Positions 9,422 through 28,767 of a stretch of 64,000 nucleotides of DNA are shown here, piece after piece. The notes below the pieces were generated by a model that worked only from the letters and a program-made list of their open reading frames with translations, ran no database searches and was not told the origin of the DNA. The position numbers and the translations under genes were made by a program. The stretch comes from Chitinophagales bacterium. GTDB taxonomy: Bacteria > Bacteroidota > Bacteroidia > Chitinophagales > LD1. The DNA is taken from contig JAXLUM010000002.1 in assembly GCA_046329515.1 (NCBI GenBank), forward strand, positions 1,039,113 through 1,103,112, read 5' to 3'. How positions within the stretch are numbered: position 1 is the first letter of the stretch; each line of letters opens with the position of its first letter.

Positions 9422-9422
9422 T

Positions 9423-13146: not shown

Positions 13147-13159
13147 GCACGCGGCACCC

Positions 13160-14865: not shown

Positions 14866-16467
14866 ATGAATATCACTTTTGCTGCTATAGGATCTGAGCA
14901 GTTGGCTATCAGCTTGCTTTCCGGTATCGCTAAACGCGAAGGCCATGCAGTAAGCCTCGTGTATACTCCTTCACTTTTTCATGACCGCTGGAACCTGGAA
15001 GTCCCTCTTCTGAATCGCTTTTTTGATGAAACAGACGAGGTAATTCAACAAATAGTTAAGTCTGAGCCTGATGTTCTGGCCTTTTCTGTTCTAACGGCCA
15101 CATATCAATGGGCCTTGCACATTGCCACCGAGGTAAAAAAGAAAAGGCCGCGCGTTAAAACCATTTTCGGTGGAGTGCATATCTCGGCAGTTCCCGACAG
15201 GGTAATAAAAAAAGAAGTAGTGGACTACCTTGTTGTTGGCGAGGGCGAAGAAGCATTTCCGGCAATATTAAGCGCCATACAGAATAAGAGTTTCACCGAT
15301 GCCATAGCCAACACATGGTTTAAAGCCGAGGATGGCCGGATTATTAAAGGCCCCCAAAAAGGGTTTTACCAGGAGCTGGACACCCTGCCGGCCTTTGACA
15401 AGATACTTTGGGAAAATGACATTAAGGTTACGGATAAGTATATGACGATGGCATCGCGCGGCTGCCCGTACCGTTGTTCGTTTTGCTTTAATAATTTTTT
15501 TGCCCGCCTGCCCGAAGAAAAGTCCGGCAAGTATGTTCGGTTCAGAAGCCCCGACCATATGCTGGCGGAGTTAAGTTTTGCCAAAGAAAGATATGGCAAC
15601 ATACGCCTGATAGATTTTCAGGATGATGTTTTTACAGCGGATAAAAAGTGGTTAAAAGAGTTTTTACCACGCTATAAAAATGAAATAGACATACCATTTC
15701 AGTGCCTTACGCACCCTAAATACCTGGATGAAGAAATTGCCGCCCTGCTGAGTGATGCAGGTTGCAAGTGGATACAGATGGGAGTGCAGAGCATGGACGA
15801 AGACTTTAAGAAAAACAACCTGCAACGTTTTGAACGCAGCGACCAGATTGCTGAAGCCTGCCGCATTATGGCTAAGTACGGCATTAAAGCCAAACTGGAC
15901 CATATGTTCGGCCTGCCCGAGGAGCCGGTAAGCGCACAGGAAAAAGCGCTTGCGCTTTATAAGCAGTATGTGCCCGAACGCATACAAACCTTTTGGACCT
16001 GTTACCTGCCCGGCACCGATTTATTGAAAGAAGGTCTGGCTAAAGGAGTAGTTACTCCGGAGGCTGCCGAGCGTTTATATGAGGGTATAGACTTTTTCTT
16101 TTACCGTAACGAAGACAACATCAAAAATCCGGAGCTGGTTAAAACCTACAAGCGTTACGAGTTTATTTTTAAAATATTGCCTATCGTGCCGGGCTTTATT
16201 GGTCAGCGCCTGCGCCCGGAAAATATTAAATGGATCCCTCTGTTTGTTATGGGGCCGGTAGCCTATACCGCCGATGTTATTACGGGCTTTATGTTCGGCA
16301 ATCCGGATTTTGCCACCTACGCACGCCATTATATGCTTCATATCAGGCGGCACATTGCAGGTTGGTTTACCTCTACCAAATCGGACGCTACTAAAAACGT
16401 TCAGAAAAAAGTTAAGCTGCCGGTGTTTATTCCTAAACGCAATATGCAGTTGAATAAAACATTTTAG
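14866..16467 (+). CDS. B12-binding (class B) radical SAM enzyme
   Basis: CPYRCSFC at nt 15463-15486. The N-terminal region (DVLAFSVLTATY ... IFGGVHISA) resembles a cobalamin-binding Rossmann domain. Confidence 0.8.
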   Translation: MNITFAAIGSEQLAISLLSGIAKREGHAVSLVYTPSLFHDRWNLEVPLLNRFFDETDEVIQQIVKSEPDVLAFSVLTATYQWALHIATEVKKKRPRVKTIFGGVHISAVPDRVIKKEVVDYLVVGEGEEAFPAILSAIQNKSFTDAIANTWFKAEDGRIIKGPQKGFYQELDTLPAFDKILWENDIKVTDKYMTMASRGCPYRCSFCFNNFFARLPEEKSGKYVRFRSPDHMLAELSFAKERYGNIRLIDFQDDVFTADKKWLKEFLPRYKNEIDIPFQCLTHPKYLDEEIAALLSDAGCKWIQMGVQSMDEDFKKNNLQRFERSDQIAEACRIMAKYGIKAKLDHMFGLPEEPVSAQEKALALYKQYVPERIQTFWTCYLPGTDLLKEGLAKGVVTPEAAERLYEGIDFFFYRNEDNIKNPELVKTYKRYEFIFKILPIVPGFIGQRLRPENIKWIPLFVMGPVAYTADVITGFMFGNPDFATYARHYMLHIRRHIAGWFTSTKSDATKNVQKKVKLPVFIPKRNMQLNKTF

Positions 16468-17339
16468 GCCTGCCCGAAAAGGCGTAACAGCTTTTGTTTA
16501 AATCCCTCCGGCTCAGGTTCCAGCTGAAGGTCTTTCATGCTTATCTGGCCGAAGGAATAATCCCACTCCTGCACCGGTTGCATATTTACAGGTAACTTAC
16601 CATCGTTGTTTTTCATCAGGTAGTCCAGTTCAATCTGAAAGCCCTGTATTTTTTTCCGGTTTTCATTCCAAAAATAAACCATCATAGGGGCACCTGCCGA
16701 AGTTAACGCACAGGAGGTCGCAATGCGGGGCTCGGTAGAATGATTTTCGCGTGAGCAATGAACTGCCCGGTGGTCATACAACAATGCATCGCCGGCATTC
16801 AGCAACAATTCGGTGCACTCTTTCCAGAAATATTCACGCAAGTCCACGGTTTGATCCGGAATGTTAGGCCCGCGGAAAATATTACGAATGTTGTGGCTGC
16901 CTTTTAAAACCTGCAAAGGTCCGTTTTCCTTAGTAAGCTTAACAAGCGGTATCCATAAATTAAACGAGCGGAATTCGTCTTCGTTTACAATGCCATAATC
17001 AATATGCGGTTGAGAAGCCCCTTTGCCCAAAGGCGGTTTAATTACAAACGAGCCCCCGAAAATCTGGTAGTTAGCGAACACCTCGCTGCAGGGGGGGGTA
17101 TATACCTCTATGATCTTGGCAATCGTGCGCACTTTATAGTCCTCATCGCGGGTATGCCACACCGAATTAATAATATGCTCCGCATGAAACTCGGGCTGAT
17201 TGTTGCGGTTATATTCAAGTAACTCAGCCACGCGTTCAGGCGAAAGAAATTTTTTCAATACCAGATAGCCATCGTCCAGCAACTGTTTTTCCAGTCGCTT
17301 GTCCTTCATTATTGGCGGAAACTGTTTTTTAACCTTCAT
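16464..17339 (-). CDS. PhyH-family Fe(II)/2-oxoglutarate dioxygenase (paralog A)
   Basis: PHIDYG (HxD) ... NGPLQVLKGSH ... AVHCS ... PRIA. N-terminal DDGYLVLKKFL motif. Confidence 0.8.
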   Translation of the reverse strand: MKVKKQFPPIMKDKRLEKQLLDDGYLVLKKFLSPERVAELLEYNRNNQPEFHAEHIINSVWHTRDEDYKVRTIAKIIEVYTPPCSEVFANYQIFGGSFVIKPPLGKGASQPHIDYGIVNEDEFRSFNLWIPLVKLTKENGPLQVLKGSHNIRNIFRGPNIPDQTVDLREYFWKECTELLLNAGDALLYDHRAVHCSRENHSTEPRIATSCALTSAGAPMMVYFWNENRKKIQGFQIELDYLMKNNDGKLPVNMQPVQEWDYSFGQISMKDLQLEPEPEGFKQKLLRLFGQA

Positions 17340-18360
17340 GAACCTTACTTGTCAGTTTTCTAAAATAGCCGGCTACTGATTGCAAAAAGCCCTTGCCGGG
17401 TGTGTAGTGTTGCACAATAGTATTCATACCATCTTTTGACAGCATTTCGGGTAAGTCGTTTTCCGGAAGCCCCACTTCCTTAACAAACTGCATAAACTGT
17501 TCTTCGGTTACTACCAAGGGCGTCAACTCCACTTTTCGCGCAGTTTTACCGGGGGGCCGGCCTACCTTTTCGCTAACAAAATCTTCAAATTCCAAGAACA
17601 CATCATCTGCCATTTCAATCATTTCAAACTCTTTGCCTGTATCTGCAGGATCCTTGTAAGGCATTTCAACCTTGGCTGTGTCTGGAAAAAAGCTGGCTGC
17701 TATTGCAACCCGGTTGCGGGCAGTTGTATTTAAAAGCGAGTTATGAAACACGCGTGAATCAAAAATTAAAAGGTCGCCTGCCTTCAAAAGTAAAGGCTTC
17801 ATATACTTATAAACCAAAGGATAGATGTCGCTAAAAGGTAGCTTATTGTATAGGTTTCGGTATGGCGGTATAAGATAGTGCGACTTTGGCAGCACACACA
17901 TAGGACCGTTTTCTATGTTCAAATTCTCTAAGGGCGACCAAATGCTGATAGGCGAAAACAGATTTTCATCCGTTAATGCCATGTCCTGGTGAATGAATAA
18001 AGCACTTTTGGGGCCGGGCGCCTTTACAATAAAGTTGTAACAACTAACCTTAAAGTTTGTAAGAAATTGTAACAGAAGTGGCTCTATTACCTGCCTTATA
18101 TCCGCATGAATTTTTTTGCGGTATTCCGTATTTGCCGAGTAGATACTCACAAACAAACCACCATCCTGCTGTTCAATTTTATGCGTTTGGGCATAAATTT
18201 TTTTTAAGGCGTTAACACGGTCGGCATCAAAAAAATTTTCGAGAATAACGTATCCATTCTCTTTTAAACCCCTGCGGATGTTTTCATCAGTTAAATGAAT
18301 ATACTCTGCCGGCCGCCAGGCTGTAGAAGCAAAAGGTGCTATAGGAGCCATGTTGCTCAT
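17329..18360 (-). CDS. PhyH-family Fe(II)/2-oxoglutarate dioxygenase (paralog B)
   Basis: FIHQDMAL (HxD), NGPMCVLPKSH, VFHNS, NRVA. Confidence 0.8.
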   Translation of the reverse strand: MSNMAPIAPFASTAWRPAEYIHLTDENIRRGLKENGYVILENFFDADRVNALKKIYAQTHKIEQQDGGLFVSIYSANTEYRKKIHADIRQVIEPLLLQFLTNFKVSCYNFIVKAPGPKSALFIHQDMALTDENLFSPISIWSPLENLNIENGPMCVLPKSHYLIPPYRNLYNKLPFSDIYPLVYKYMKPLLLKAGDLLIFDSRVFHNSLLNTTARNRVAIAASFFPDTAKVEMPYKDPADTGKEFEMIEMADDVFLEFEDFVSEKVGRPPGKTARKVELTPLVVTEEQFMQFVKEVGLPENDLPEMLSKDGMNTIVQHYTPGKGFLQSVAGYFRKLTSKVHEG

Positions 18361-19253
18361 AACGAAAACATTTCTTTTACCCTATTACTGAAGTTCCGCC
18401 ATTGGGAAACTTCAAATAAAGCGGGCAGCATTTCTTCGGTTAATTGCGGATCAGGCTGGGCATGCGTGCCCGCATATTGTGCAAAGGATGGAGGCTGCAT
18501 AAACTCGCTCTTGAAATCATCATACAACATAAAAAAAGACGGAGGCACTTTGTAAGCGTCTACCTTTACCACCTTACCGTTCTCCTTACCGAAATAAAGC
18601 ATAAAATCAGCGTCCTTATGGCTGAGGTTGGTCATAACACAAACGCGGATAGAATTTGTGTTGTTTGGAGGAGAATAATGAGCAAGGGCAGAATCGAAAA
18701 CCAGCGCCTCGCCGGCGCTTACATTTTGAGGTTCCATATATTTACGTATAGCCCGCTGCACGTTATCAAAAGCTGCATTAATGCCAGCTCCGCGAATGTG
18801 ATTTAGTTTAAGATGCGAACCCTTAATTGCATGAATGGTGCCATTCTCAGCGAAACAATCCATTAAAGGCAGCCAAAAAGTATAGGTTCTGAATTGCTTC
18901 TCATCTGTAAAGCTCCAATCCTGGTGCACGTACAGTTCCGATTGCGGCCCCAACCCCTTAATCTGATAGGTAAAGGACGACTGCTGCACATCTTTGAAGT
19001 GTTTCGCAAAGTAAGGCTTCAGCAGTTCGCCTATTTGCGTATTCATTTCATTCCGGAAGTTACTGTCAGGGTTATGGAGGCAGGTATATAAGATATCATA
19101 TGGGATATCCGTTCGCGGGGTAACCAGTTGATGATAACGCCCCAACAACTTTTCAATACCATCCTCATCCAAAAAGCGGAACTTTACAATGCCGTCTTTG
19201 TTCAGCATTTTTTGGTACTGTTCGTTTAGGAGGATATCTCTATTCATTTTCAA
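18357..19253 (-). CDS. PhyH-family Fe(II)/2-oxoglutarate dioxygenase (paralog C)
   Basis: YVHQDWSF, NGTIHAIKGSH, LAHYSPPN. ATGA overlap with paralog B. Confidence 0.8.
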   Translation of the reverse strand: MKMNRDILLNEQYQKMLNKDGIVKFRFLDEDGIEKLLGRYHQLVTPRTDIPYDILYTCLHNPDSNFRNEMNTQIGELLKPYFAKHFKDVQQSSFTYQIKGLGPQSELYVHQDWSFTDEKQFRTYTFWLPLMDCFAENGTIHAIKGSHLKLNHIRGAGINAAFDNVQRAIRKYMEPQNVSAGEALVFDSALAHYSPPNNTNSIRVCVMTNLSHKDADFMLYFGKENGKVVKVDAYKVPPSFFMLYDDFKSEFMQPPSFAQYAGTHAQPDPQLTEEMLPALFEVSQWRNFSNRVKEMFSL

Positions 19254-20100
19254 TCAGCTTACGGTAGGCATCAACAAATTCCACAGGCTCATATTCCTTC
19301 TTAAAGGCATTGTTCACTTTGCGGTTAAGGCTGCCAAAAGCAGGCCGTTGCTCGCGCTCGGCATTAAAATCATTATACAGATACCAAAAGTTTTCAGGCA
19401 CGGAATAAACTTCAATTTCTTCTACCCCGTTTTGTTTATCGAAATACCCAAGTTCAATAGGCGCTTCCTTATTAACTACAGAAACTGCTAACGACATGCG
19501 CGGCATACCCGAGTAGTTTTTACCCGAAAAATGTATGGTGCCGGGATCGAAGGCAAGCGCCTCTCCCTGTTTAACGGGGTACGTGTCCGACATTTCCCGT
19601 ATGTAATCCTGTACTTTACCAAACTGGTAATCCATAGTATGCGTACGGAACCCCCTGAATATGCGCTGGCTGCCTTTAAGGGCACGAATAGCGCCATTAT
19701 GCAGGGTGCTTTCCATCATGGGTATCCAAAAGGTGCAGGCTGCATAACGGCTTTCATCCACCACTGTAAGGTCCTGGTGGATGGTTACCGCAGAATCGTT
19801 ACTTATTCCTTTTATCTGGGCAATAATGGCAAGCACTTTGTAATCTGCGAAAATGTTTTCAAGCTTCGGCTGAATAAGCGGATAGAAGGTGTCGAAAATC
19901 CTTTGACGGTATTTTATATCGCCGCCAAAAATAGAGAAGTAGTAGCCGGGGGCGTTAGGTTCGTTCCAATGCGGGTGTAGCGAAATAAAAAGTTCGCGTA
20001 GGGTATCAATAAAGGCGGCATCGGAAAAAAACACCTTCGCTATACCTTCTTTATCGAAATCTCTTTGTAATTCTGCACTCCTGAATAACGGCGCTCTCAT
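19240..20100 (-). CDS. PhyH-family Fe(II)/2-oxoglutarate dioxygenase (paralog D)
   Basis: TIHQDLTV, NGAIRALKGSQ, TIHFSGKN, PRMS. Confidence 0.75.
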   Translation of the reverse strand: MRAPLFRSAELQRDFDKEGIAKVFFSDAAFIDTLRELFISLHPHWNEPNAPGYYFSIFGGDIKYRQRIFDTFYPLIQPKLENIFADYKVLAIIAQIKGISNDSAVTIHQDLTVVDESRYAACTFWIPMMESTLHNGAIRALKGSQRIFRGFRTHTMDYQFGKVQDYIREMSDTYPVKQGEALAFDPGTIHFSGKNYSGMPRMSLAVSVVNKEAPIELGYFDKQNGVEEIEVYSVPENFWYLYNDFNAEREQRPAFGSLNRKVNNAFKKEYEPVEFVDAYRKLIENE

Positions 20101-20136
20101 AATACAATATTGCAGGCAGCCACTGAAGAAATAAGC

Positions 20137-20907
20137 ATGTTAACCATTACTCCATCTGCTGCTGTAAAGGTAACCAAAAATGATTTGCTGAACGGGCCTG
20201 TAGTAATACGAAGTTTTTTCGGGCCGGATGAAGTGCAGGCCATACTGGAGGTTATTAAAAGCAATTATGATAACGGCGTCAATAATTTCGTGCCTTACCG
20301 TTTTCCGAATATTGACTGGAACCGGCGGGCTGACTTTAGTGCCGAAACGGAAAAATTCAACCACCTGTTTAGCGCAGTATTGTTGCAGCCGTTTCGGGAA
20401 AAACTGAAGAGCCATCTGGCCGACCTTGCCATTGAGCCTGTAGTAAATGACGAAGAATTAGTGTTTAACCAGTTAACGGTGCGTATTCTGCAACCCGGGC
20501 AAATGGACATTAACCAGCATTGCGAAAACCAAACCGTTAGTTATTGTAAAAGGTTTTTCGGTTTGCTTGACAAGCAAATGGAAATTTGGGACCAGCGGAG
20601 CCTGTTACTGATGTTGCAAAAACCCGAAACCGGTGGCGATGTAGTTATTTATAAGCAGAAGTGGACAGGCGAAACGGATGCCGAAGGGCAGCGCGATTAC
20701 CTGATTAATTATGATAAGGAGCACGGGCTACCAAACGATAATGTGTCACAAATCATTAGCCTTAATCCGGGCGACCTATTAACATTTGAGGCCGGTAATA
20801 CCTGGCATAAAGTTTCAGAAGCCTATGGTGCAGTACCGCGCATAACAGTGGGTGGTTTTATGGGGCTTGCTAAAAACAGCGCCGATAAATATTTATACTT
20901 TTCCTGA
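20137..20907 (+). CDS. 2OG-Fe(II) oxygenase superfamily protein (P4H-like fold candidate)
   Basis: NQHCEN (HxE) ... GGDVVIY ... NTWHKVSE ... PRITVGGF spacing resembles the double-stranded beta-helix facial triad plus Arg. The ATG at 20137 is preferred over the TTG at 20110. Confidence 0.5.
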   Translation: MLTITPSAAVKVTKNDLLNGPVVIRSFFGPDEVQAILEVIKSNYDNGVNNFVPYRFPNIDWNRRADFSAETEKFNHLFSAVLLQPFREKLKSHLADLAIEPVVNDEELVFNQLTVRILQPGQMDINQHCENQTVSYCKRFFGLLDKQMEIWDQRSLLLMLQKPETGGDVVIYKQKWTGETDAEGQRDYLINYDKEHGLPNDNVSQIISLNPGDLLTFEAGNTWHKVSEAYGAVPRITVGGFMGLAKNSADKYLYFS

Positions 20908-20912
20908 GGCTG

Positions 20913-22208
20913 TTATTCCACTGAAGTAATGGTCCAGTTAAGGTTGGGCCTGATAACAGCCGGTATAGTTTCTGTATAATGGCTGATAAACTCAAAGTTG
21001 GGGTGCTTACGAAACTCCGGGTTTAAGCCGAGATTGAAAGAGACAATTCGAAAATATTCCGCCACTACTTCCATGGTGTTTTGCAGCACTATTACGTGTA
21101 AAGAATAAACGCCTCGATTAAGCAAATTTGCAGGCACCACCGTAGATAAGCGATAACGCCCCTGGGCAACAGGGCTTTCTATGCCATCTAACCTGAACAA
21201 CAGACAATCGGTAAGCACATTTACCATCGTAGAGTTCTGGATATTGAGTACAAAATCAAGTTTTGCATCGCTGGAAAACTTAGTATAGTCCAACGAAATT
21301 TCTATGGCCTCTTCCAGGTAAATTTCCTCGCCTTTCTTTTTGCCAACAGCTTTCACTTCCACGCCATTCAACTCAAAAATGCCTTCTATTCTGCGGGGAC
21401 TGTTTTGTTTTCTGCCGGCATCGGCATTCTCCTTTTGTTCTTTCGGTGTCCTTGCTTCAGGTTCATCTAAGTGATAGACCTTCCTGTAATATTGTTCCAA
21501 CACATCGGCCACGTTGCCTTCAGCTACAATTGCGCCTTCCTCTATCCATATCACGCGGTCGCAAATAGCTTTTATACCTTCCAGGTTATGGCTTACTAAA
21601 ATTACTCCCCGGCCATCGGAGGAAAGCCTTCGTATGGCCTCCGAACTTTTCAAACTAAACTCTGCATCCCCAACCGAAAAAATTTCATCCAGCAGCAAAA
21701 TGTCTGTGCGCAAAACAGACATCGTAGAAAAGGCTAGGCGCGTATACATGCCACTGCTGTAATATTTCACCGGCACATCTATAAAATCCGCAATGCCACT
21801 GAATGAAACAATTTCATCCATGCAGCTTTGCGCATCCGGCTTAGCGATGCCCAATATCTGTGCCGTTAAAAAAACATTATCACGGCCGGTTAAGTCAGGG
21901 CTAAAGCCAGCGCCGATTTCCAGCAAGCTGCCCAGGGTACCCGTAATAGAAATTTTACCCTCGGATGGTTTGCTTACTCCGCTAATCATTTTCAGCAAGG
22001 TTGATTTACCCGCACCGTTGCTGCCGATTATTCCCAGCACCTCTCCCTTTTTAAGGGAGAAGCTTACATCCTTTACAGCCAGAAACTTACCCTTACCGGC
22101 CACTGCCACAGCAGCAGGGTTAACCGGCTCTGTATCCAGGTGGTACCACTTGGATACATGCTCAAGCTGTAAAACAGTTTGGCCGCTTTTATTTTTAAAG
22201 CTTTCCAT
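20913..22208 (-). CDS. wzt: Polysaccharide ABC exporter ATP-binding protein (Wzt/TagH-like) with C-terminal extension
   Basis: Walker A GSNGAGKST, signature YSSGMYTRLAF, Walker B ILLLDE. A non-NBD C-terminal domain of about 170 aa follows. The ATG at 22208 (MESFKNK) is preferred and overlaps the methyltransferase stop by 14 nt. Confidence 0.85.
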   Translation of the reverse strand: MESFKNKSGQTVLQLEHVSKWYHLDTEPVNPAAVAVAGKGKFLAVKDVSFSLKKGEVLGIIGSNGAGKSTLLKMISGVSKPSEGKISITGTLGSLLEIGAGFSPDLTGRDNVFLTAQILGIAKPDAQSCMDEIVSFSGIADFIDVPVKYYSSGMYTRLAFSTMSVLRTDILLLDEIFSVGDAEFSLKSSEAIRRLSSDGRGVILVSHNLEGIKAICDRVIWIEEGAIVAEGNVADVLEQYYRKVYHLDEPEARTPKEQKENADAGRKQNSPRRIEGIFELNGVEVKAVGKKKGEEIYLEEAIEISLDYTKFSSDAKLDFVLNIQNSTMVNVLTDCLLFRLDGIESPVAQGRYRLSTVVPANLLNRGVYSLHVIVLQNTMEVVAEYFRIVSFNLGLNPEFRKHPNFEFISHYTETIPAVIRPNLNWTITSVE

Positions 22209-23139
22209 AGTCCAGTTCCTGTTGCTGCTTTTTGTGTACCTGCATCCAATAAAGGTTTTGCAGAAAATATTTATCGGTACCGTATAGCAAATCGTAAACG
22301 GGCTTGTAGCATTTAATTTCAAAAAAGTCTACCGGAAAAATATACTCCTCCCAATTCTCAATTTTGGCAATGCCTGTAAGCTCCTGAAAATCGTTACTGA
22401 CGGTAAGGTTCTCAAACTCCTCCAGTTTCAGGTCAATGGTTTTTACAAACATAATGGCAAAACCCTGTACCCGCAGGGCATTTAAAACAGTGTTTAACTC
22501 TGCAACATTGTAACGGTAAGCCTCATTAATCCGGCCTATTTCATAATCAATCTTTGCCTGATGCTCGGGGTAAAAAGCCAGCTTGCGGAAAAGGTCCTTT
22601 ATATAAAGTGTGCCACCGGGTTTTAGCACTTCCCATACCGATTGTATGGCCTTTGCATGATCATGTGAGTGGCCAAAAGATTCGAGAAAATATACTACAT
22701 CAAACACCTCTTTGCCAAAATGTGAAGGCAGTTCATGGTAGTCCTGCTTACTTACTTTTACTTTATCGGCTATCCGCGCCGATTCAATTTTTTTGTTCGC
22801 TGCATTGCACTGTACTTCGGAAACGGTTACTCCTTCAACCTGCACTCCATACTTCGTTGCAAAATATATAGCCGGACCCGCAACCCCACAGCCGGCGTCA
22901 CAAACTTTCATGCCTTCAGCAAGCCCCATACTCACGGCTTCGTAATCCAACAGTTTGGTTACATCAGTGGTACGGTATGCCTGAATTATTTCACCATACA
23001 CCTGCACAAACTTATCGTTGTAGGTATCATAAAACTTGCCCACCTGTTGGGGCTTTACAGTTTGCGATACAGCAGCTACCTGTTCTTCTGCTGAAGAGGG
23101 GTGCAAAAAAAACTTGCGGATGAGCGACAACAAACCCAT
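22195..23139 (-). CDS. Class I SAM-dependent methyltransferase
   Basis: Motif I VCDAGCGVAGPAIYFA and post-I/II spacing. N-terminal amphipathic segment MGLLSLIRKFFL. Confidence 0.8.
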   Translation of the reverse strand: MGLLSLIRKFFLHPSSAEEQVAAVSQTVKPQQVGKFYDTYNDKFVQVYGEIIQAYRTTDVTKLLDYEAVSMGLAEGMKVCDAGCGVAGPAIYFATKYGVQVEGVTVSEVQCNAANKKIESARIADKVKVSKQDYHELPSHFGKEVFDVVYFLESFGHSHDHAKAIQSVWEVLKPGGTLYIKDLFRKLAFYPEHQAKIDYEIGRINEAYRYNVAELNTVLNALRVQGFAIMFVKTIDLKLEEFENLTVSNDFQELTGIAKIENWEEYIFPVDFFEIKCYKPVYDLLYGTDKYFLQNLYWMQVHKKQQQELDYGKL

Positions 23140-23148
23140 GGCGGCAAA

Positions 23149-24060
23149 TTACAGACCTATTTTTTCAATCCATCTTTTCAGCAAAGATTTTTGCGGTTGC
23201 GGCTCTGCAAGCTTAATAACCGGCGGTTTATTGGCGTTTTGCTGTTGTTGGTATAGGGTTTCAAATTGCTGCTGGTTTAAAGGCTCGCCTAAGGGGCCAA
23301 TATCGCGGAACTTTTTTAAGCCTTGCGGGCCTTTCAATATGTCATGCTTAAAGAAAAAGTCCACACTGTTTTCATACTCCTCTATTATACCGTTAGTCAA
23401 GTAATAGTAACGCATCTCCGCCTTCTCGGGTATAATACCAAACACAACCGCCAAGCGCGGCTCTTCGGTTTCGTTAACTGCTGAGGCATGTAGCAGGCGA
23501 TGGTCGTATATCAGAGCCTCACCGGCCTTCATGGCCACGGTAGTGTGATAGTTCCAGGTATGGGCGTTTACTTTATAAAAAGGATCGGGAACATTTACGC
23601 CCCTGTAACTTTTAAGCAGTTTGTGGCTTTGCGGCAGCACTGCCAGTGCACCGTTTTTTTCATTGGTATCCACCAGCGGTACCCATATATTAAAGGAGCG
23701 GTAATAATCTTCGTCAACAATATTCCAGTCCTGGTGAGGATAAAGCACTCCTCTTTTGCCTTTATACTTTACGATATACGAACCACCAAGGGGGCGGCAG
23801 TTTAAAAACGTTTGCGACAAGGCCCGGCCAAAGGTTTTTAATATGATGTCATTCAGTTTTTTTTTAAAGTCGTAATTATCGGAATGGGCCGTAGCATACA
23901 GGCCTTCCTTGTTCTGAGGATGGTTTTCGTAGAAAATATCCACCAGCGTTTTTACTTCCTCCGTGTTAAGAAATGGGACAACTACATAACCCTGTTGTTC
24001 CAAAAACTTGTCCTGCTCAATGTTCTGCAATAATTGCATAGGCTTATATGCCAACGGCAT
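23149..24060 (-). CDS. PhyH-family Fe(II)/2-oxoglutarate dioxygenase (paralog E)
   Basis: YPHQDWNI, NGALAVLPQSH, LLHASAVN, PRLA. Confidence 0.8.
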   Translation of the reverse strand: MPLAYKPMQLLQNIEQDKFLEQQGYVVVPFLNTEEVKTLVDIFYENHPQNKEGLYATAHSDNYDFKKKLNDIILKTFGRALSQTFLNCRPLGGSYIVKYKGKRGVLYPHQDWNIVDEDYYRSFNIWVPLVDTNEKNGALAVLPQSHKLLKSYRGVNVPDPFYKVNAHTWNYHTTVAMKAGEALIYDHRLLHASAVNETEEPRLAVVFGIIPEKAEMRYYYLTNGIIEEYENSVDFFFKHDILKGPQGLKKFRDIGPLGEPLNQQQFETLYQQQQNANKPPVIKLAEPQPQKSLLKRWIEKIGL

Positions 24061-25864
24061 CTAAAATTTTTCTGAACAAAGATTTTTTCTCCGGGGTCAA
24101 CGTCTTCTCCGGCTTTGGCTTAGGAGTTTCGGCTTTAGGCACGGGCTTCAGGTAACCTGCTTTCTGTTTCATTTGTTCAACTAAGCCCCCCAACTCCTCT
24201 TTAGTATAAACGGGCGCGGTATATGTTTTAGTACCTATTGAGGTTCCCATCTTAGGGCGCGCATAAATATCCTGCATAAAATTCTCGAAGCTGATAAGGA
24301 AGTTATCTTCCATTTTTATCATCTCCACTTCATTCTGCATTTCAGGCGTTTTGTAATGAAACACCATAGGCGGCTCTACGCTCATAATACCGCTGGTAAT
24401 AGCAATGCGTATTTTATCGGTTTTGTTGGGCGGCGAGTAATGCACCAGGCTTTGATTAAGCACCACCGCTTCTCCGGCTTTTACATTCATTGGCACGCAA
24501 TGGCCAATCATTAACTGCTCGTTTCCTTCAAAAAACATGGGCAGGGTGGGGCAGCGTATGGCTTTTACAATACCATACTGCGAACCCGGCAATACATACA
24601 GCGTTCCGTTTTGCTCGTCTGTATCAACGAGAGGCACCCATATATTAAGCGCTACATATTTATCCTCGTCCACAATAGTCCAATCCTGATGCACCGGCAA
24701 CTCTGAATACGCATCCGGTTGTTTGAACAGAAAGGCAGACCCGAAAGCGCGATAGTTTTGAAACATTTCTTCAAAATGCCCTTTGAATATTCCGGTGATA
24801 CTATCGCTGCAGGATTTTTTGTATTTGTAATCAGAAGAGTAACTGCTGGATTGAAAGCCGGCAGCTGAAAGGCCCGGATGTTTTTCCCAAAATAGTTTTG
24901 TCAGTTCTTCAATCTCCTGCGGTGTAAGGAACGGCACTTTTACAAAGCCCTGTTTATCGAACAAGTCCTGCAAGGCGGCGTCTTTAAAAAGTGCTTTAGG
25001 GTTTTCAATTTTTTTTGGCGGGGGACCGTACAGCTGCACTAACCATGCAGGGGTCAGCTTGGGGAAGTTATAATCCACCAGCCCTAGACTTTTGCCGATT
25101 TTGGGCCTGTCAAAAATATTCTCGCCAAACTGCTGAAAGTCCGTCATAAAGGAGTCGTCCTCTTCAAACACTTCCACTTTATTACCGAAATCCCTGTTCC
25201 AATAGCAAATGCGGAACTCCGAATCTTTATGCGTGAAATAGATATTAGTAACAATGCGAACGCCGCCCGAGAGGTTCGGCGGTGAATAATGGATAATACT
25301 CTGGTCAAAAATTACCGCCTGGCCCGCCTTTAGGTACAGCGGCTGCATGTAATCCAGTATTTCCTGTTGCACATCGTCGTACAAAGCAGGTATAGTGCTG
25401 CCTCTATAGGTAGGCGTAATACGGTGCGAGCCCGGTATTAAATACAATACGCCGTTAGTGTCGGTAAGGTCAATCAAAGGGCACCAGATATTAATGCCGG
25501 TAAAGCGCGTTTCATCCACCAACGTCATATCCTGATGGGTTTGCATGATAGAATCCTCGCCGGGCGACTTTACGATAAATGCGCCGAACATTAATTTGGT
25601 ATCTATCAGTTGCGTACTTAACCATGGGTCGGCAATGCGCTTTATCTCGTCATTAACGGTTTCGCGATAATGCTTATCCGAAGAAAAAGTGCTGGGGAAA
25701 AATCCTTTTTCATCTTTTGGATGCAGCCGGTGGTAAAGCTCATTTAGTTCCTTTACCTGTGCAGCATTATAAAAATCAACCACCACATAACCGTTTTTTT
25801 CAAACTGCTGCTGCATGGCCTCGTCGGCAAACACCCTTTTCATTTTATCAGGGAAAGAAAACAT
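24044..25864 (-). CDS. Tandem di-domain PhyH-family dioxygenase (paralog F1-F2)
   Basis: Two complete sets: QTHQDMTL/IIHYSPPN and PVHQDWTI/LVHYSPPN. Each follows its own (Q/D)KxGYVVV N-terminal motif. Confidence 0.8.
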   Translation of the reverse strand: MFSFPDKMKRVFADEAMQQQFEKNGYVVVDFYNAAQVKELNELYHRLHPKDEKGFFPSTFSSDKHYRETVNDEIKRIADPWLSTQLIDTKLMFGAFIVKSPGEDSIMQTHQDMTLVDETRFTGINIWCPLIDLTDTNGVLYLIPGSHRITPTYRGSTIPALYDDVQQEILDYMQPLYLKAGQAVIFDQSIIHYSPPNLSGGVRIVTNIYFTHKDSEFRICYWNRDFGNKVEVFEEDDSFMTDFQQFGENIFDRPKIGKSLGLVDYNFPKLTPAWLVQLYGPPPKKIENPKALFKDAALQDLFDKQGFVKVPFLTPQEIEELTKLFWEKHPGLSAAGFQSSSYSSDYKYKKSCSDSITGIFKGHFEEMFQNYRAFGSAFLFKQPDAYSELPVHQDWTIVDEDKYVALNIWVPLVDTDEQNGTLYVLPGSQYGIVKAIRCPTLPMFFEGNEQLMIGHCVPMNVKAGEAVVLNQSLVHYSPPNKTDKIRIAITSGIMSVEPPMVFHYKTPEMQNEVEMIKMEDNFLISFENFMQDIYARPKMGTSIGTKTYTAPVYTKEELGGLVEQMKQKAGYLKPVPKAETPKPKPEKTLTPEKKSLFRKILDAVGI

Positions 25865-25873
25865 AGCTGCGGG

Positions 25874-27838
25874 TTATGGATTATCAGAGGTTACGCGGTG
25901 TTTTATTTCGCGCAGTATATTAAGCGGAGTATACTTCTGAAAAAAGCTGCGGCCGTCTACGGTCGGGCCTTGTTGCACAACAGGGTCCTGTTGCACCAAC
26001 ACCTGTTCTTCAGGCTCCTCCAACATTGGTCGTTCGGCAGGCTGTTCTTCCACAACAGTAACCTCTTCCTGTATTATCTCGGGCGTGGGTTCCTGTTTTT
26101 GCGAACCGTCCATATTGTAATTAAAGAGCTTCGCCAAATGCTCGCACATTTCAATATTAAAGGTATTGCCGGCTTCCTTAATTTTTGCCAGCAGTTCGTC
26201 AGCGCTTATATACTGCACGCGGTTGTCAACCACCTCTAAAAGGTTTAAATCTTCCGGCAGTTTACCGCTGTTATACATTTCGGATAGGCGAGCGTTGTTG
26301 TAATGCGTAAAAAAGAAATCGTCTACTTCGTATTTGTTCAGCTTCTTACAATCGCTGCCGGGCACCAAATAATAATGCCGCAACGGCGCATCCTTCTGGG
26401 TAACCCCAAACCCCACGGCTAAGCGTACGCCGTCTGAAACATTAGGAGGCGAAGCGTGCACCGTACGGTTATCGAACACCAATGCTTGCCCCGGCTTCAT
26501 GGGTATTAGTTTCAGGTAAGGGAAAATAGAAAACACATGCGTATCGAGCGGGGTTTTAAACTGGGGCGCCGGTGAACAGCGGTGGTGATTGAAAAATTTA
26601 TGAGAGCCTACAATCACGCCCATTTCGCCGTTATACATATCGGTATCAACCAGTGCAGTCCAAATGGTGGCTGAGTTATAACCTTCATCTTCCTCGGTAA
26701 AACTCCAATCCTGGTGTGGCGGAACCACGCCAATGGGGTTCTTTTCTTTTACCACATAACTGCTGGTAAAAATTTTATAATCCGTGAAATACTTATCTGC
26801 CGGGCCGCTGATTACTGTTTTGATTTTATCCATTACTCCCATTACAAAATCGGGCTTCCTGTTATCCAGGCTAACGTGAAACCCATAATCGGGTATATGG
26901 TCGTTGTTTAGCGTATTGTAATAATCCTTCAGCTCTTTTACTTCCATTTCGTTCAGCATATCCAGCAAAACATAACCGTCGCGCTCGTATTGCTGTTGTA
27001 GTGCCGAGTCTTTAAATAAAGGCTTCATAATTTCACTTTTATATCGTTGCAAAAACAGGTTGAAGTGTTGTGCGCTTAAAGAGGTAAAGTCTTCCTTTAG
27101 TTTACGCGCAGGTTGTACAAAGGTAGGGCGTTCGCCATGGTTATCGTACTTCAGAAAAAAATCATCTTCCACTTCGTAACAATCAACATCTCCGGCTTCA
27201 TCTAAATGATAAAAAAAGAGTTGCGCCTGCTGCGGCACTAAGCCATAGGTAACTGCAATACGGTTATTGGCGGTACTGTTAAGATGCGAGGCGTGAACAA
27301 GCGCCTGATTAAACACAAATGCTTCGCCGGATTTCATCCGGAGGGTTTTCATTTGCTTCCGTATGTGCGGTTCAATATCCTTGATAACAACCGGCAAAGA
27401 AGGAGCGCGCAGGATAGGCGTTAAACGATGGCTGCCATCCAGCACCATTAGCGCTCCTTTATTTTCATCCACATCCTGTAAGGGCACCCAAATAGTGCAC
27501 GAGACGAATCGAGATTCGTCAACAATTGTCCAGTCCTGATGCACAGGCATAAAACCGCCCTGTCCACCGGGTTTGGTTAAAAAACTGGCTCCTAAAAATT
27601 TATGCGGCGTCAATAGCTTTCCGGCTTCAGGTGCAAACACCTGCTTTACCTCATTAAAAAGCTGTTGTTTTAAGGCAATGTCTTTAAAAAAAGTGGTGGA
27701 ATGAAAATATGGCGATTGGCTCTCGAAACCCGCGTATACGGCACGCAGCTTCTCTACCTCCTCTTCGGAAAGAAGCGGAACAATAACATAACCACGCGAA
27801 GCTAATTGCAGGTTAAGGGCCTCGTCCTTAAAAATCAT
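25874..27838 (-). CDS. Tandem di-domain PhyH-family dioxygenase (paralog G1-G2) with acidic Pro/Gln-rich tail
   Basis: PVHQDWTI/LVHASHLN and PPHQDWSF/TVHASPPN. C-terminal low-complexity segment EPTPEIIQEEVTVVEEQPAERPMLEEPEEQ. Confidence 0.8.
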   Translation of the reverse strand: MIFKDEALNLQLASRGYVIVPLLSEEEVEKLRAVYAGFESQSPYFHSTTFFKDIALKQQLFNEVKQVFAPEAGKLLTPHKFLGASFLTKPGGQGGFMPVHQDWTIVDESRFVSCTIWVPLQDVDENKGALMVLDGSHRLTPILRAPSLPVVIKDIEPHIRKQMKTLRMKSGEAFVFNQALVHASHLNSTANNRIAVTYGLVPQQAQLFFYHLDEAGDVDCYEVEDDFFLKYDNHGERPTFVQPARKLKEDFTSLSAQHFNLFLQRYKSEIMKPLFKDSALQQQYERDGYVLLDMLNEMEVKELKDYYNTLNNDHIPDYGFHVSLDNRKPDFVMGVMDKIKTVISGPADKYFTDYKIFTSSYVVKEKNPIGVVPPHQDWSFTEEDEGYNSATIWTALVDTDMYNGEMGVIVGSHKFFNHHRCSPAPQFKTPLDTHVFSIFPYLKLIPMKPGQALVFDNRTVHASPPNVSDGVRLAVGFGVTQKDAPLRHYYLVPGSDCKKLNKYEVDDFFFTHYNNARLSEMYNSGKLPEDLNLLEVVDNRVQYISADELLAKIKEAGNTFNIEMCEHLAKLFNYNMDGSQKQEPTPEIIQEEVTVVEEQPAERPMLEEPEEQVLVQQDPVVQQGPTVDGRSFFQKYTPLNILREIKHRVTSDNP

Positions 27839-27849
27839 ACACCCTTATT

Positions 27850-28767
27850 TTATGCAGAAATTAAACCAAGTATCCTTTTCAAAAAACCTTTCTCTTCATC
27901 AAACCTCGGCGCTTTTAATCCGGCTTCAAATTGCTGCACTGTAAGCGGATGCTGCTGATAAGGAATAGTGTTGACAGTTTTAGTGCCCACAGCCTTCATC
28001 CAGGGATTAAACTGCATGTAAAATTCGTGATCTACCTCCCACACTTTTATTTCAGTAGGCTGAGACGGATCTAAGTGATAGTGCACGGAAGGCACCTCGC
28101 CAGGAATTAAAATCAACTGTATAGCCAAGCGTAAATCCGGGGTGCGATTGGGACGGGTGTAGTGCACGATACTGTCATCCAGTATTACTGCGTTGCCCGC
28201 TTTGGTATCAATAGGCACCATATATTTACCAATCAACTCCTGCTTAATGTTATCCAACTCCCAGGGTATCATGGGCCCACGGAACTCGCCAAAACGCTTA
28301 TGACTGCCGGGTATTACTTCCAGTGTGCCGTTCTCGCGAGTGCTGTTTACCAAGGGGCACCAAATTGAAACGGAAGTATAGCGGCGCTCCTCCACAAAGG
28401 CCCAGTTCTGGTGTATGGGAACTTCGCCGGCATCGGTCTTTTTGCGGATGTAGTTTGCGATGATAGGTTTATAGTCGGCAAGGTAGTGTTTAACCTGTTC
28501 GGCAAACTCCTCCGTAATGATATCGAATACCTTCTTCTTGTATTCTGGGTTCTTATCAATAAACGTAAAGTCGTAAGTAATATCCGGCACATCCAGCGAG
28601 CTGATATCTTCCGGCTTTATCTGGCCACCGCTTTCGGGTAATGTTTCGAAGAACATTTTTTGCAGGCGCTGCACTTTATCAGCAACGATAAACGGCACCT
28701 GCACATAACCGTCTTTATCAAATTTTTTCTGGAGTTCAGCGGAGTTAAAAACCTTTCTCATACACAC
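27850..28767 (-). CDS. PhyH-family dioxygenase-like protein with H-x-N in place of H-x-D (paralog H)
   Basis: PIHQNWAF: the codons at 28405-28413 read CAC CAG AAC on the minus strand. NGTLEVIPGSH, IVHYTRPN and LRLA are retained. Confidence 0.7.
   Translation of the reverse strand: MCMRKVFNSAELQKKFDKDGYVQVPFIVADKVQRLQKMFFETLPESGGQIKPEDISSLDVPDITYDFTFIDKNPEYKKKVFDIITEEFAEQVKHYLADYKPIIANYIRKKTDAGEVPIHQNWAFVEERRYTSVSIWCPLVNSTRENGTLEVIPGSHKRFGEFRGPMIPWELDNIKQELIGKYMVPIDTKAGNAVILDDSIVHYTRPNRTPDLRLAIQLILIPGEVPSVHYHLDPSQPTEIKVWEVDHEFYMQFNPWMKAVGTKTVNTIPYQQHPLTVQQFEAGLKAPRFDEEKGFLKRILGLISA

Follow-up and report, generated by a model that had tools for sequence, protein, structure and literature searches.

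Among the closest described counterparts of the locus analysed here are the Wzm/Wzt O-antigen transporters with a methyl-type chain cap (Escherichia coli O8/O9a with WbdD; Aquifex aeolicus WzmWzt), which share with it an ABC-2 permease and an ATPase bearing a beta-sandwich domain. Wzt proteins known to bear a carbohydrate-binding domain (CBD) handle capped polymers, and to our knowledge the known Wzm/Wzt O-antigen systems contain no oxygenases. The O-antigen of Vibrio cholerae O1, an N-acylated perosamine homopolymer with a terminal O-methyl group in Ogawa, is likewise exported by Wzm/Wzt; a DegT-family transaminase makes the 4-amino-4,6-dideoxyhexose, and dedicated acyl-activating enzymes build the hydroxylated N-acyl group. 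That Fe/2-oxoglutarate (2OG) enzymes oxidise envelope glycolipids at the inner membrane is well established, as illustrated by LpxO and KdoO, whose targets are the acyl chains of lipid A and Kdo (lipid A-core). These enzymes belong to other families (Asp/Arg hydroxylase-like, KdoO) than PhyH and are encoded by single genes unlinked to wzm/wzt.

Sugar-acting PhyH-like enzymes also occur in antibiotic pathways (EvdO1/EvdO2, AviO, HygX, SnoK/SnoN, KanJ). EvdO1/EvdO2, AviO and HygX catalyse orthoester and methylenedioxy formation, SnoK/SnoN carbocyclisation and epimerisation, and the bicyclomycin cluster is an example of a known cluster with five 2OG oxygenases. The antibiotic-pathway PhyH-like enzymes are soluble, take free antibiotics as substrates and are encoded in Actinomycetota clusters without Wzm/Wzt. 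The BXO8-type LPS cassette of Xanthomonas combines wzm/wzt with one or two "phytanoyl-CoA dioxygenase family" genes, and also carries UbiA, FAD-binding, oxidoreductase, GtrA and flippase-like genes (bioRxiv 10.1101/2022.03.02.482478). Its dioxygenases, likened to those described below by annotation only, are few and are mentioned in passing without a function (bioRxiv 10.1101/2022.03.02.482478); similar accessory genes are present in loci related to ours.

Here we describe a Chitinophagales locus built around a surface-sugar export operon, with ten built-in Fe/2OG oxygenase domains of the PhyH type and an eleventh Fe/2OG enzyme of a non-PhyH, WelO5-like family. No description of such an oxygenase/glycan-export module was found in the literature searched.

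Results

The window, the whole stretch of 64,000 nucleotides that was analysed, contains eight PhyH genes, all on the minus strand (Table 1). All eight scored above the PF05721 gathering score in Pfam, with E-values from 1e-14 to 9e-42, and B2 and B3 each contain two PF05721 stretches, which gives the ten domains counted in the first-pass annotation. An HMM built from these ten detected no further PhyH copy in the rest of the 64-kb window. The motif succession proposed for each domain was found in part: His, Asp, His and Arg are kept in nine of the ten domains, H-Q-D is absent from B4 and A1 (the latter has H-I-D), and Gln replaces the His of "GSH" in A4 and B2c.

Table 1. Genes of the window, with positions counted from its first letter
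Gene	Position	Strand	Product	Supporting matches and details
wzm	28773..29591	-	ABC-2 type permease, first B operon gene	PF01061 ABC2_membrane, E 1.2e-15
B4	27850..28767	-	single PhyH domain, non-canonical H-Q-N...H...R	PF05721, E 1.4e-18
B3	25874..27838	-	two PhyH domains	PF05721, two stretches, E 9.4e-36; B3n, ~aa 1-268 (nt 27838-27035); B3c, ~aa 269-654 (nt 27034-25877)
B2	24044..25864	-	two PhyH domains	PF05721, two stretches, E 8.6e-42; B2n, aa 1-285 (nt 25864-25010); B2c, aa 286-606 (nt 25009-24047)
B1	23149..24060	-	single PhyH domain	PF05721, E 2e-20
MT	22195..23139	-	class I SAM methyltransferase	Pfam CMAS, Methyltransf_11/25
wzt	20913..22208	-	ABC ATPase with C-terminal beta-sandwich CBD (aa ~278-431)	PF00005
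WelO5-like	20110..20907	+	Fe/2OG enzyme	PF22814, E 1.3e-31
A4	19240..20100	-	single PhyH domain, first gene of accessory A array	PF05721, E 9.7e-15
A3	18357..19253	-	single PhyH domain	PF05721, E 5e-16
A2	17329..18360	-	single PhyH domain	PF05721, E 2.4e-19
A1	16464..17339	-	single PhyH domain, H-I-D	PF05721, E 1.2e-20
B12-radical SAM	14866..16467	+	B12-binding radical SAM enzyme, convergent with A1	PF02310 + PF04055; NCBIfam matches of B12-radical-SAM methyltransferase type, all below cutoff
DegT	29687..30859	+	WecE-like sugar 4-aminotransferase (dTDP-4-amino-4,6-dideoxyhexose synthesis), divergent from wzm	PF01041, E 1.6e-85; dTDP-4-amino-4,6-dideoxygalactose transaminase 4piw, E 1.4e-119
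KAS III	3346..4398	-	FabH-like	PF08545/PF08541; PDB FabH matches, E 6e-56
GT2	2606..3373	-	best named match ArnC (polyprenyl-phosphate glycosyltransferase type)	PF00535; top NCBIfam undecaprenyl-phosphate 4-deoxy-4-formamido-L-arabinose transferase, E 2e-19 (69.8 vs cutoff 529 bits)
B12-radical SAM 2	1228..2622	-	second B12-binding radical SAM enzyme, between GT2 and GNAT	PF04055 + PF02310
GNAT	561..1226	-	N-acyltransferase, best named match PseH	PF13302; NCBIfam PseH, E 1.2e-15, below cutoff

The PhyH fold was supported by HMM and by predicted structure, for which B2 was modelled. The AF2 model (mean pLDDT 83.4) gave MysH, SyrB2, SnoK/N, HygX and EvdO2 as top Foldseek matches, KanJ was also among the fold matches, and the best PDB folds were all PhyH-type Fe/2OG enzymes; the best PDB sequence match of B1 is SnoN (E 8e-6). 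The window domains thus belong to the same fold subfamily as the antibiotic-pathway enzymes, but identity to these is only 13-21%, and the match to MysH, SyrB2 and meroterpenoid oxygenases is just as good. The closest relatives of solved structure have very different small molecules as substrates and so give no clue to the substrate here.

With regard to gene organisation, the domain map placed six PhyH domains between wzm and wzt, as had been noted, and the B operon is as tightly packed as first described. Its order is wzm, 5-nt gap, B4, 11-nt gap, B3, 9-nt gap, B2, 17-nt overlap, B1, 9-nt gap, methyltransferase, 14-nt overlap, wzt, so that about 6.4 kb encoding six oxygenase domains and the methyltransferase splits the two transporter genes. 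Such a split by oxygenases is not known from other Wzm/Wzt systems; polymerising glycosyltransferases are missing from the window, and neither a kinase nor a coiled-coil terminator of the WbdD type is present. As in the known systems, the operon includes a methyltransferase gene, and the PDB matches of its product are 3bus (E 1.5e-21), MitM and a D-glucose O-methyltransferase (E 1.4e-15).

Wzt most likely starts at ATG 22208 (432 aa) rather than at TTG 22322. Its nucleotide-binding domain matches that of A. aeolicus Wzt (E 5e-50), and its AF2 model aligns with full-length WzmWzt (7k2t/8dku), CBD included, over ~390 columns (E 1e-32), a whole-protein fold match. The C-terminal domain itself falls below the Pfam Wzt_C threshold; the protein is nevertheless collinear with Wzt_C-bearing homologues, and Wzt_C was matched in 20 of 34 collinear homologues.

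At the end of every oxygenase polypeptide, a flexible linker leads into a short, basic amphipathic helix that is similar to the membrane-targeting tail of MinD (B4, EEKGFLKRILGLISA; B3, LNILREIKHRV; B2, KSLFRKILDAVGI; B1, KSLLKRWIEKIGL). The mean maximal hydrophobic moment is 0.563 for the tails versus 0.415 for internal control segments, and the last 20 residues contain on average 4.1 K/R and 1.7 D/E (n=457). In the B2 model, a terminal helix (596-604) follows a disordered linker (576-594). Judging from these sequences, the helix most likely holds the oxygenases at the inner membrane, on its cytoplasmic side.

We gathered 80 related loci from species-representative genomes by similarity to B2; the hosts are more than 80 species, mostly uncultured and mostly Bacteroidota MAGs. 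The Wzm-B4-B3-B2-B1-MT-Wzt order was found again in most of six tabulated loci, wzm homologues are present in 55 of 85 loci and the methyltransferase in 50-53, with a median identity (56%) that is the highest among the non-PhyH genes compared. The association with wzm/wzt is conserved: at least four PhyH domains intervene in 30 of the 42 loci with both genes. The core domains form single-copy orthogroups, found in the following numbers of loci (out of 85): B1, 74; B3c, 72; B4, 65; B3n, 37-40; and B2n, 82, and B2c, 80, whose universality is true by construction given the sampling via B2. The H-x-D...H...N...R pattern is invariant in every orthogroup but B4, and the triad and Arg residues of the ungrouped accessory domains are kept in 154-158 of 159 aligned.

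The window domains are 21-33% identical pairwise, as against 35-75% between window domains and their orthologues in the six tabulated loci. The paralogy is therefore ancient, which agrees with the first-pass view of strong divergence without recent duplication. The "extreme" expansion also claimed there is only relative: related loci carry 5-14 PhyH domains within at most 22 kb, so the window, with ten, is not the most extreme case, and the core paralogues, being single-copy across about 80 genomes, are not an expansion of this genome.

The overlapping A array (A4, 14-nt overlap, A3, 4-nt overlap, A2, 11-nt overlap, A1) was confirmed, and the same order recurs in one related locus (L018), with orthologue identities of 41% for A4, 39% for A3, 36-39% for A2 and 57% for A1. 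It is not part of the wzm-wzt operon but a rare, separate accessory cassette. The plus-strand WelO5-like gene between the A and B arrays divides them into different transcription units. Aligned to WelO5 H164-V-G166 and H259, the WelO5-like enzyme shows H-C-E, a hydroxylase-type triad rather than the halogenase H-x-G, whereas its homologues in relatives have H-C-G in 19 of 23 cases.

B4 stands apart in its catalytic site. The Asn of its H-Q-N is invariant in 63 of 63 orthologues, and the group has its own set of conserved residues; B4, without the carboxylate ligand, may not be a conventional oxygenase. One could extend this to PhyH-fold proteins (at least B4) that are largely non-catalytic and support the transporter as scaffolds, as regulators of chain length or as adaptors that bind the substrate. 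The loss of the facial-triad carboxylate in all 63 orthologues would fit, and a scaffold would also suit the tandem fusions and terminal helices. We nevertheless regard this as very improbable, given that nine of ten window domains retain His, Asp, His and the 2OG-binding Arg, and that B4 itself retains both His, the Asn of H-x-x-x-x-N and the Arg under strong constraint, a pattern that fits a working cofactor site.

The flanking genes include the WecE-like aminotransferase, whose family occurs in 19 related loci, and KAS III, whose GCSG, HQAN and GNTS motifs are consistent with a Cys-His-Asn triad. KAS III adjoins GT2 and GNAT upstream of wzm in 24-25 related loci; GNAT is found beside these two in 24-25 loci, GT2 is present in 26-28, and homologues of the 14866..16467 radical SAM enzyme in 6-8. 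The window also encodes an AMP-binding ligase. Three unannotated polytopic membrane proteins and one flippase-like LPG_synthase_TM protein were observed as well. One glycosyltransferase was recognisable in the window, and neither an initiating phosphoglycosyl transferase nor a polymerising glycosyltransferase was found there; any polymer made by this genome is thus putative. Related loci also bear glycan genes (GT4, GT87, PMT_2, Bac_transf, explicit Wzt_C, sugar epimerases), and most of their accessory genes are glycosyltransferases and nucleotide-sugar enzymes.

Discussion

We consider it somewhat more probable than its negation that the PhyH battery is built into an ABC-transporter surface-glycan (O-antigen/capsule-like) assembly locus, where it would tailor a lipid-linked glycan before methylation and export. 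By analogy, the gene set may recall that of V. cholerae O1, as it comprises a WecE-like transaminase, GNAT, KAS III, AMP-ligase, methyltransferase and Wzm/Wzt; the V. cholerae locus, however, has no Fe/2OG oxygenases and makes GDP-perosamine, whereas a dTDP-type sugar is suggested here.

The same flanking genes could instead feed an Arn-like glycolipid route without a polymer, in which the transaminase, GNAT, KAS III and ArnC-like GT2 make a polyprenyl-phosphate-linked N-acyl-4-amino-4,6-dideoxyhexose. PhyH enzymes tethered to the membrane would add several hydroxyl groups to its acyl chain or sugar, and the methyltransferase would complete it. The resulting single-sugar lipid would be flipped by Wzm/Wzt and attached in the periplasm, by membrane enzymes of the GT-C type, to LPS or another acceptor. 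The window shares a DegT-type transaminase and a GT2 nearest ArnC with the Arn pathway (ArnB/ArnC/ArnT; undecaprenyl-phosphate-Ara4N), the best named GNAT match is PseH, and relatives have GT-C enzymes (PMT_2, GT87); the window lacks a polymerising glycosyltransferase but has the polytopic and flippase-like membrane proteins, and unactivated C-H bonds, the usual substrate of PhyH-type enzymes, are abundant in an acyl chain. In L086 and in 14 of 42 full-length loci, wzm is immediately preceded by KAS III, GT2 and GNAT, with or without DegT; yet the KAS III/GNAT/DegT set was found in only about one third of loci (±10 kb searched), orthologues of ArnA, ArnD, ArnE/F and ArnT are absent, and a motif search of its first 36 kb found no acyl carrier protein. 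Furthermore, the window Wzt shares the fold of CBD-bearing Wzt proteins that export capped polymers, and one locus (L087) has an initiating Bac_transf enzyme typical of polyprenyl-PP-linked polymers. On balance, this route appears unlikely, although it is worth serious consideration.

A natural-product-type cluster seems to us quite doubtful. In such a cluster, a small secreted molecule, be it a lipid, a polyketide-like metabolite or a modified peptide, would be decorated by the methyltransferase, the oxygenases and the radical SAM enzymes, joined in relatives by halogenase-type and sulfate-activating enzymes; the ABC-2 pump would provide export or self-protection. The toolkit does resemble secondary metabolism (B12-radical SAM, radical SAM-SPASM, WelO5-like enzymes with the halogenase motif in relatives, cysC/D/N within the L075 operon, KAS III with the AMP-binding ligase), and almost all of the closest solved structures of PhyH type come from natural-product enzymes. 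Nevertheless, PKS and NRPS are absent, the motif search of the first 36 kb found no carrier protein, the tightly packed core operon leaves no precursor-peptide-sized gap, the transporter resembles Wzm/Wzt in particular and has a domain for glycan binding, and the accessory genes are predominantly of the glycan type.

Returning to the glycan-assembly reading, the MinD-like tails and the Wzt CBD lend further, indirect weight to the earlier proposal that the exported polymer or its lipid-linked precursor is what the oxygenases act on, while the substrate is something that we infer, as are the tethering, the kind of chemistry and the sequence of events. The tails would place the oxygenases where lipid-linked intermediates are built and where Wzm/Wzt sits. 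There they may carry out successive site-specific oxidations on a polyprenyl-linked glycan, possibly a glycolipid, by hydroxylation or by related radical reactions, for example epimerisation or oxidative cyclisation, at deoxy positions, N-acyl substituents or a terminal cap. The product would then be methylated by the sugar-O-methyltransferase-like enzyme, and its finished end recognised by the C-terminal CBD of Wzt for export. We regard the genes of the A1-A4 array, of the WelO5-like hydroxylase and of the B12-radical-SAM enzymes as variable accessory tailoring genes.

As a counterpoint, at least six C-H oxidations are chemically hard to place on one carbohydrate, and we know of no precedent for six or more in O-antigens.

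The antibiotic-pathway enzymes illustrate that the members of a paralogous PhyH set can each modify a defined position of one oligosaccharide. That the six core domains are distinct single-copy orthologues implies six separate functions and not just a higher gene dosage. The oxygenase battery in the export operon is an old, inherited and widely shared module and not a local expansion.

Results

The PhyH expansion, called extreme in the first-pass annotation, proved to be part of a conserved gene module and not an expansion local to this genome; related loci contain up to 14 such domains. The ORF listing and Pfam both bore out ten PhyH domains in eight minus-strand genes, namely A1 to A4 (the A array) and B1 to B4 (between wzm and wzt). 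The N- and C-terminal domains of the two-domain proteins B2 and B3 are referred to as B2n, B2c, B3n and B3c. The flanking ABC-2 permease, class I methyltransferase and ABC ATPase were also recovered by Pfam as first annotated. PF05721 matched all eight proteins, over ten stretches, with scores of 56-144 bits (gathering cutoff, 22 bits) and E-values of 1e-14 to 9e-42, and an HMM built from the ten domains found no further PhyH copy in the 64 kb window. From wzm to wzt, the genes of the B operon are spaced by 5, 11, 9, -17, 9 and -14 nt, and those of the A array by -14, -4 and -11 nt; wzm and wzt are 6451 nt apart. As the gene of a WelO5-like Fe/2OG protein lies on the plus strand between the two arrays, A and B constitute separate transcription units. 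The addition of this protein brings the locus to eleven Fe/2OG domains.

Coordinates of the features discussed, in the window unless a related locus (L number) is named
Feature	Position	Strand	Assignment or remark
A1	16464-17339	-	one PhyH (PF05721) domain
A2	17329-18360	-	one PhyH domain
A3	18357-19253	-	one PhyH domain
A4	19240-20100	-	one PhyH domain
WelO5-like Fe/2OG protein	20110-20907	+	PF22814, E 1e-31; between wzt and A4
ABC ATPase (wzt)	likeliest start ATG 22208		PF00005
Class I methyltransferase	22195-23139		Pfam
B1	23149-24060	-	one PhyH domain
B2	24044-25864	-	two PhyH domains
B3	25874-27838	-	two PhyH domains
B4	27850-28767	-	one PhyH domain
ABC-2 permease (wzm)	28773-29591		PF01061
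KAS III, GT2, GNAT	561-4398		best named matches ArnC (GT2) and PseH (GNAT)
Polytopic membrane protein 1	6129-7856	-	about 10 predicted TM segments
CydA-like protein, LPG_synthase_TM "flippase-like" protein, membrane-anchored c-type cytochrome	7876-11536		in that order
Polytopic membrane protein 2	11494-13146	+	about 10 predicted TM segments
Polytopic membrane protein 3	13100-14818	+	at least 6 predicted TM segments
GlpD-like FAD glycerol-3-phosphate dehydrogenase and tandem-rhodanese protein	30822-33154		DAO + DAO_C (GlpD-like); beside the WecE-like gene
Unannotated 330-aa ORF	46064-47056
Caspase-domain protein	47265-48740
APS kinase, CysD-like and CysN-like genes	L075:13480-16378		between methyltransferase and wzt
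Polyprenyl synthetase	L085:6476-7555
Polyprenyl synthetase	L087:8116-9078
Radical SAM family	L075:20936-22222
Radical SAM family	L081:16845-18131
Radical SAM family	L085:17763-19019
Radical SAM family	L087:18290-19549
WelO5-like genes of related loci	L003, L006, L024, L025, L027, L028, L045, L046, L057, L069, L071, L075, L076, L078, L082, L083

With regard to distribution, B2 has 230 homologues at E <1e-5, found mostly in Bacteroidota MAGs and in some Xanthomonadales. When one genome per species was scanned, 119 related loci emerged, of which the best 80 (L005-L084) were taken; all 80 are from MAGs, none from an isolate, and all but L067, L070, L081 and L083 are labelled Bacteroidota. According to the window-domain HMM, each related locus (up to 22 kb) holds 5-14 PhyH domains. 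The richest are L018 (14), L054 (12) and L019 (11), together with L088, where 12 domains are spread over 11 genes. The order Wzm-B4-B3-B2-B1-methyltransferase-Wzt recurs in most of the tabulated loci. One locus, L081, is labelled Henriciella pelagia (Alphaproteobacteria) and resembles the Crocinitomicaceae locus L075 gene for gene, which may reflect mis-binning or transfer.

Clustering of 545 domains yielded six core groups, each comprising a single window domain and roughly one member from each locus, and about 45 rarer groups. B1 is represented in 74 loci, B3c in 72, B4 in 65 and B3n in 37-40; the counts for B2n (82) and B2c (80) are true by construction, because similarity to B2 was the criterion by which loci were selected. 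The A1-A4 cassette is accessory and rare; L018 has it in the same internal order. The ten window domains share 21-33% pairwise identity, which, with the single-copy orthogroups, rules out a recent local duplication, as the first annotation had concluded from their strong divergence. Given that window-to-orthologue identity in six tabulated loci is 35-75%, the duplications are older than the spread of the module. Judging by this orthology, five or six of the oxygenases have separate, conserved tasks. The window pair wzm and wzt is indeed split, yet the accompanying claim that the two are normally adjacent does not extend to the related loci: among the 42 that have both genes, they are adjacent in nine, with the PhyH genes elsewhere in the locus, and separated by at least four PhyH domains in 30.

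The oxygenase assignment was upheld at the level of fold, with PF05721 in all eight proteins and a PhyH-type Fe/2OG fold, not a non-oxygenase one, in the AlphaFold2 model of B2 (mean pLDDT 83.4). In a Foldseek search with B2 alone, the top 50 matches were mostly Fe/2OG oxygenases of double-stranded beta-helix fold; those in the PDB include MysH, SyrB2, TlxIJ, SnoK/SnoN, AndA, HygX, EvdO2 and KanJ, with a probability of 1.00 and target-normalised TM-scores of 0.45-0.58. Sequence matches in the PDB are weak, the best for B1 being SnoN (E 8e-6), and a profile of B2 orthologues retrieved PhyH (2e-9), PHYHD1 (2e-7) and EvdO2 (5e-5). A specific kinship with the orthosomycin-type enzymes EvdO/AviO/HygX was considered and rejected: EvdO2 improves from E 0.019 by single sequence to 4.9e-5 by profile, but PhyH, PHYHD1 and MysH score better, and the fold scores are no higher than those of unrelated members. 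The fold matches of the model point to no particular substrate.

The 2-His-1-carboxylate facial triad is present in nine of the ten window domains. The H-Q-D motif first described for every domain therefore needs amending in two of them, as A1 reads H-I-D, with the Asp retained, and B4 reads H-Q-N. The 2OG-binding Arg downstream of the second His is found in all ten, and no fewer than 98% of the 545 domains from the loci have it. H-x-D...H...N...R is invariant in orthogroups B1, B2n, B2c, B3n and B3c and nearly so in the accessory domains. In all 63 B4 orthologues, the carboxylate position is taken by Asn, while both His, the Asn of the motif and the Arg are retained. With clustering at 50% identity, an exhaustive B4 search returned 2824 clusters at E <=1e-3, 228 of them at E <=1e-30; H-x-N domains occur in 57 of 141 B4-related cluster representatives and are often fused to H-x-D domains. 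Of 261 family proteins retrieved, 143 are two-domain and 13 three-domain proteins. The H-x-N group has an Asp four residues before the second His in 98% of cases, versus 0% of the H-x-D domains, and also conserves a YDFTFID motif and Arg107. These features are more in keeping with a working protein whose metal site has changed than with a decaying pseudo-enzyme, and no description of such a facial-triad variant was found in the literature. A weak NCBIfam "chlorinating enzyme" match of B4, with 24.8 bits where the model requires 226, is confined to the generic NG..PGSH region and was set aside. At the position of the Gly/Ala of Fe/2OG halogenases, B4 has Asn.

All eight PhyH polypeptides of the window end in a short basic amphipathic segment, for example KSLLKRWIEKIGL, KSLFRKILDAVGI, LNILREIKHRV and EEKGFLKRILGLISA, which is lacking in the N-terminal domains of both fusion proteins. 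Across 457 proteins, the mean hydrophobic moment of the tail is 0.563 versus 0.415 for the control, with 40% of the tails above the control's 90th percentile. In the B2 model, a helix (596-604) follows a disordered linker (576-594). Like membrane-targeting sequences of the MinD/FtsA type, the tails are short basic amphipathic helices at the extreme C-terminus after a flexible linker; that of B4 resembles the E. coli MinD sequence closely. The tails suggest that the oxygenases would work on the membrane.

The transporter genes encode an ABC-2 permease and a Wzt/TagH-type NBD, the combination expected of Wzm/Wzt; the NBD is closest to A. aeolicus Wzt (E 5e-50) and to TagH/TarH. The window Wzt's own sequence falls below the Pfam Wzt_C threshold, and its C-terminal 160 residues alone found nothing among PDB sequences. 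PF14524 (Wzt_C) is matched by 20 of 34 homologues collinear with it, and the alignment of its AlphaFold2 model (mean pLDDT 84.9) with full-length WzmWzt spans ~390 columns (7k2t/8dku, E 1e-32), so that Wzt is of the carbohydrate-binding-domain kind, an assignment settled by homologue profiles and fold search only. The methyltransferase resembles 3bus, which we take to be the sugar O-methyltransferase RebM, as well as MitM and a D-glucose O-methyltransferase, and the aminotransferase gene diverging from wzm is WecE-like (E 1e-119). Together, this evidence places the oxygenases in a surface-glycoconjugate pathway ending in Wzm/Wzt export. The glycan-type character of the transporter and of most accessory genes makes a small-molecule natural-product cluster less likely; a RiPP or PKS reading was rejected, there being no carrier-protein motif in the first 36 kb and no space for a precursor ORF in the core operon.

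The KAS III/GT2/GNAT trio lies about 18-22 kb from the operon in the window; in L086 and 14 of the 42 full-length loci, it is found directly upstream of wzm. No initiating phosphoglycosyl transferase or polymerising GT was recognised in the 64 kb window, where the ArnC-like GT2 is the only recognisable glycosyltransferase; Bac_transf, GT4 and GT2 genes occur in some related loci. The main rival explanation is an Arn-like route, in which the transporter would flip a tailored single-sugar lipid. Recurrent partners of the module are one 290-aa protein, which has no Pfam match and occurs in 26-27 loci, a UbiA-like protein, a second GT2, a GT4, rSAM-SPASM and B12-rSAM proteins and a GDSL protein. 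Single-locus additions comprise PMT_2 or GT87 GT-C enzymes, DprE1/E2-like pairs, Bac_transf, a polyprenyl synthase and cysC/D/N within the operon.

Polyprenyl synthase was dismissed as a core partner, being present in only four loci (L067, L070, L085 and L087), where it adjoins the PhyH/Wzt genes. L067, L070 and L085 are proteobacterial; all three have GT87, and L067 and L085 an amine-oxidase-like flavoprotein. A radical SAM family recurs in 12 loci, and Pfam places SPASM (residues ~25-93) before the radical SAM core (~135-290) in the L075 and L081 members, an unusual order.

In the window WelO5-like protein, H-C-E aligns to the H-V-G of WelO5, which indicates a hydroxylase type and rules out a halogenase. 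H-C-E occurs in only three WelO5-like proteins, the window copy included, while 19 of 23 in related loci have H-C-G, a halogenase signature (compare WelO5 H-V-G), so that some relatives may halogenate the product. Both types occur in tandem in L025 and L082. In L075, a complete Crocinitomicaceae chromosome (OZ252050.1), the insertion of an APS kinase, a CysD-like PAPS_reduct-domain protein and a CysN-like GTPase points to a product that is probably sulfated in that lineage.

Three polytopic membrane proteins of the window, all of which end in a soluble part, are matched by neither Pfam nor NCBIfam, and resemble neither each other nor any protein of the first 84 loci searched; their shape suggests putative GT-C-type glycosyltransferases. 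The CydA-like/LPG_synthase_TM/cytochrome trio, located between the KAS III/GT2/GNAT genes and the PhyH arrays, is missing from all related loci. Its CydA-like protein matches Pfam at E 4e-58, but the NCBIfam cytochrome bd models score it at no more than about 60 bits, and no recognisable CydB adjoins its gene. The GlpD-like and tandem-rhodanese genes overlap by one base, and neither is conserved in related loci. G+C falls to 0.36-0.375 at 6001-8000 and 46001-48000, versus about 0.44 elsewhere; the first dip covers the first polytopic protein and the second the unannotated 330-aa ORF, the caspase-domain gene starting inside this second dip. T9SS sorting domains lie nearby (Pfam), and the other genes of the window have unrelated housekeeping roles or lack annotation.

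Discussion

Five to six distinct oxygenases make up the invariant core, together with the methyltransferase and a Wzm/Wzt transporter that has a carbohydrate-binding domain. Given that the oxygenases, the methyltransferase and a transporter with a recognition domain are invariant while the GTs vary by locus, we favour a conserved lipid-linked feature as the probable target, on which the oxygenases would act before export. This target could be a terminal cap or a conserved N-acyl-aminosugar. A bolder reading, which we consider rather unlikely, is that the core would be a machine for cap building and gate keeping. Its oxygenase cascade, with a new H-x-N subclass of altered iron chemistry, would make a heavily oxidised, methylated end or side group of a lipid-linked glycan, also chlorinated or sulfated in relatives, which would serve as the export signal read by Wzt. 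If this is true, bacterial surface glycoconjugates would gain a new, oxidatively tailored class that is widespread among uncultured Bacteroidota.

How glycans are assembled in ABC-transporter-dependent pathways is well understood, and Fe/2OG hydroxylation of LPS is known from LpxO and KdoO. These are single enzymes of other families. The described ABC-transporter-dependent systems are, to our knowledge, modified by glycosyl, methyl, phosphate, acetyl or Kdo groups. Full-text literature searches found no description of the oxygenase-wzm/wzt module; the sole related item mentions phytanoyl-CoA dioxygenase genes in passing in Xanthomonas wzm/wzt LPS cassettes (bioRxiv 10.1101/2022.03.02.482478).

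The locus suggests a widespread, unstudied oxidative tailoring of lipid-linked envelope glycans, mainly in uncultured Bacteroidota MAGs, with halogen or sulfate additions possible in relatives. A defined seven-gene operon, five to six orthologous oxygenases and a natural H-x-N variant fixed across a large clade provide testable material. The product, if found, may account for surface traits that bear on resistance to phages and grazers, and would enlarge the repertoire of C-H functionalising enzymes on membrane-bound substrates.
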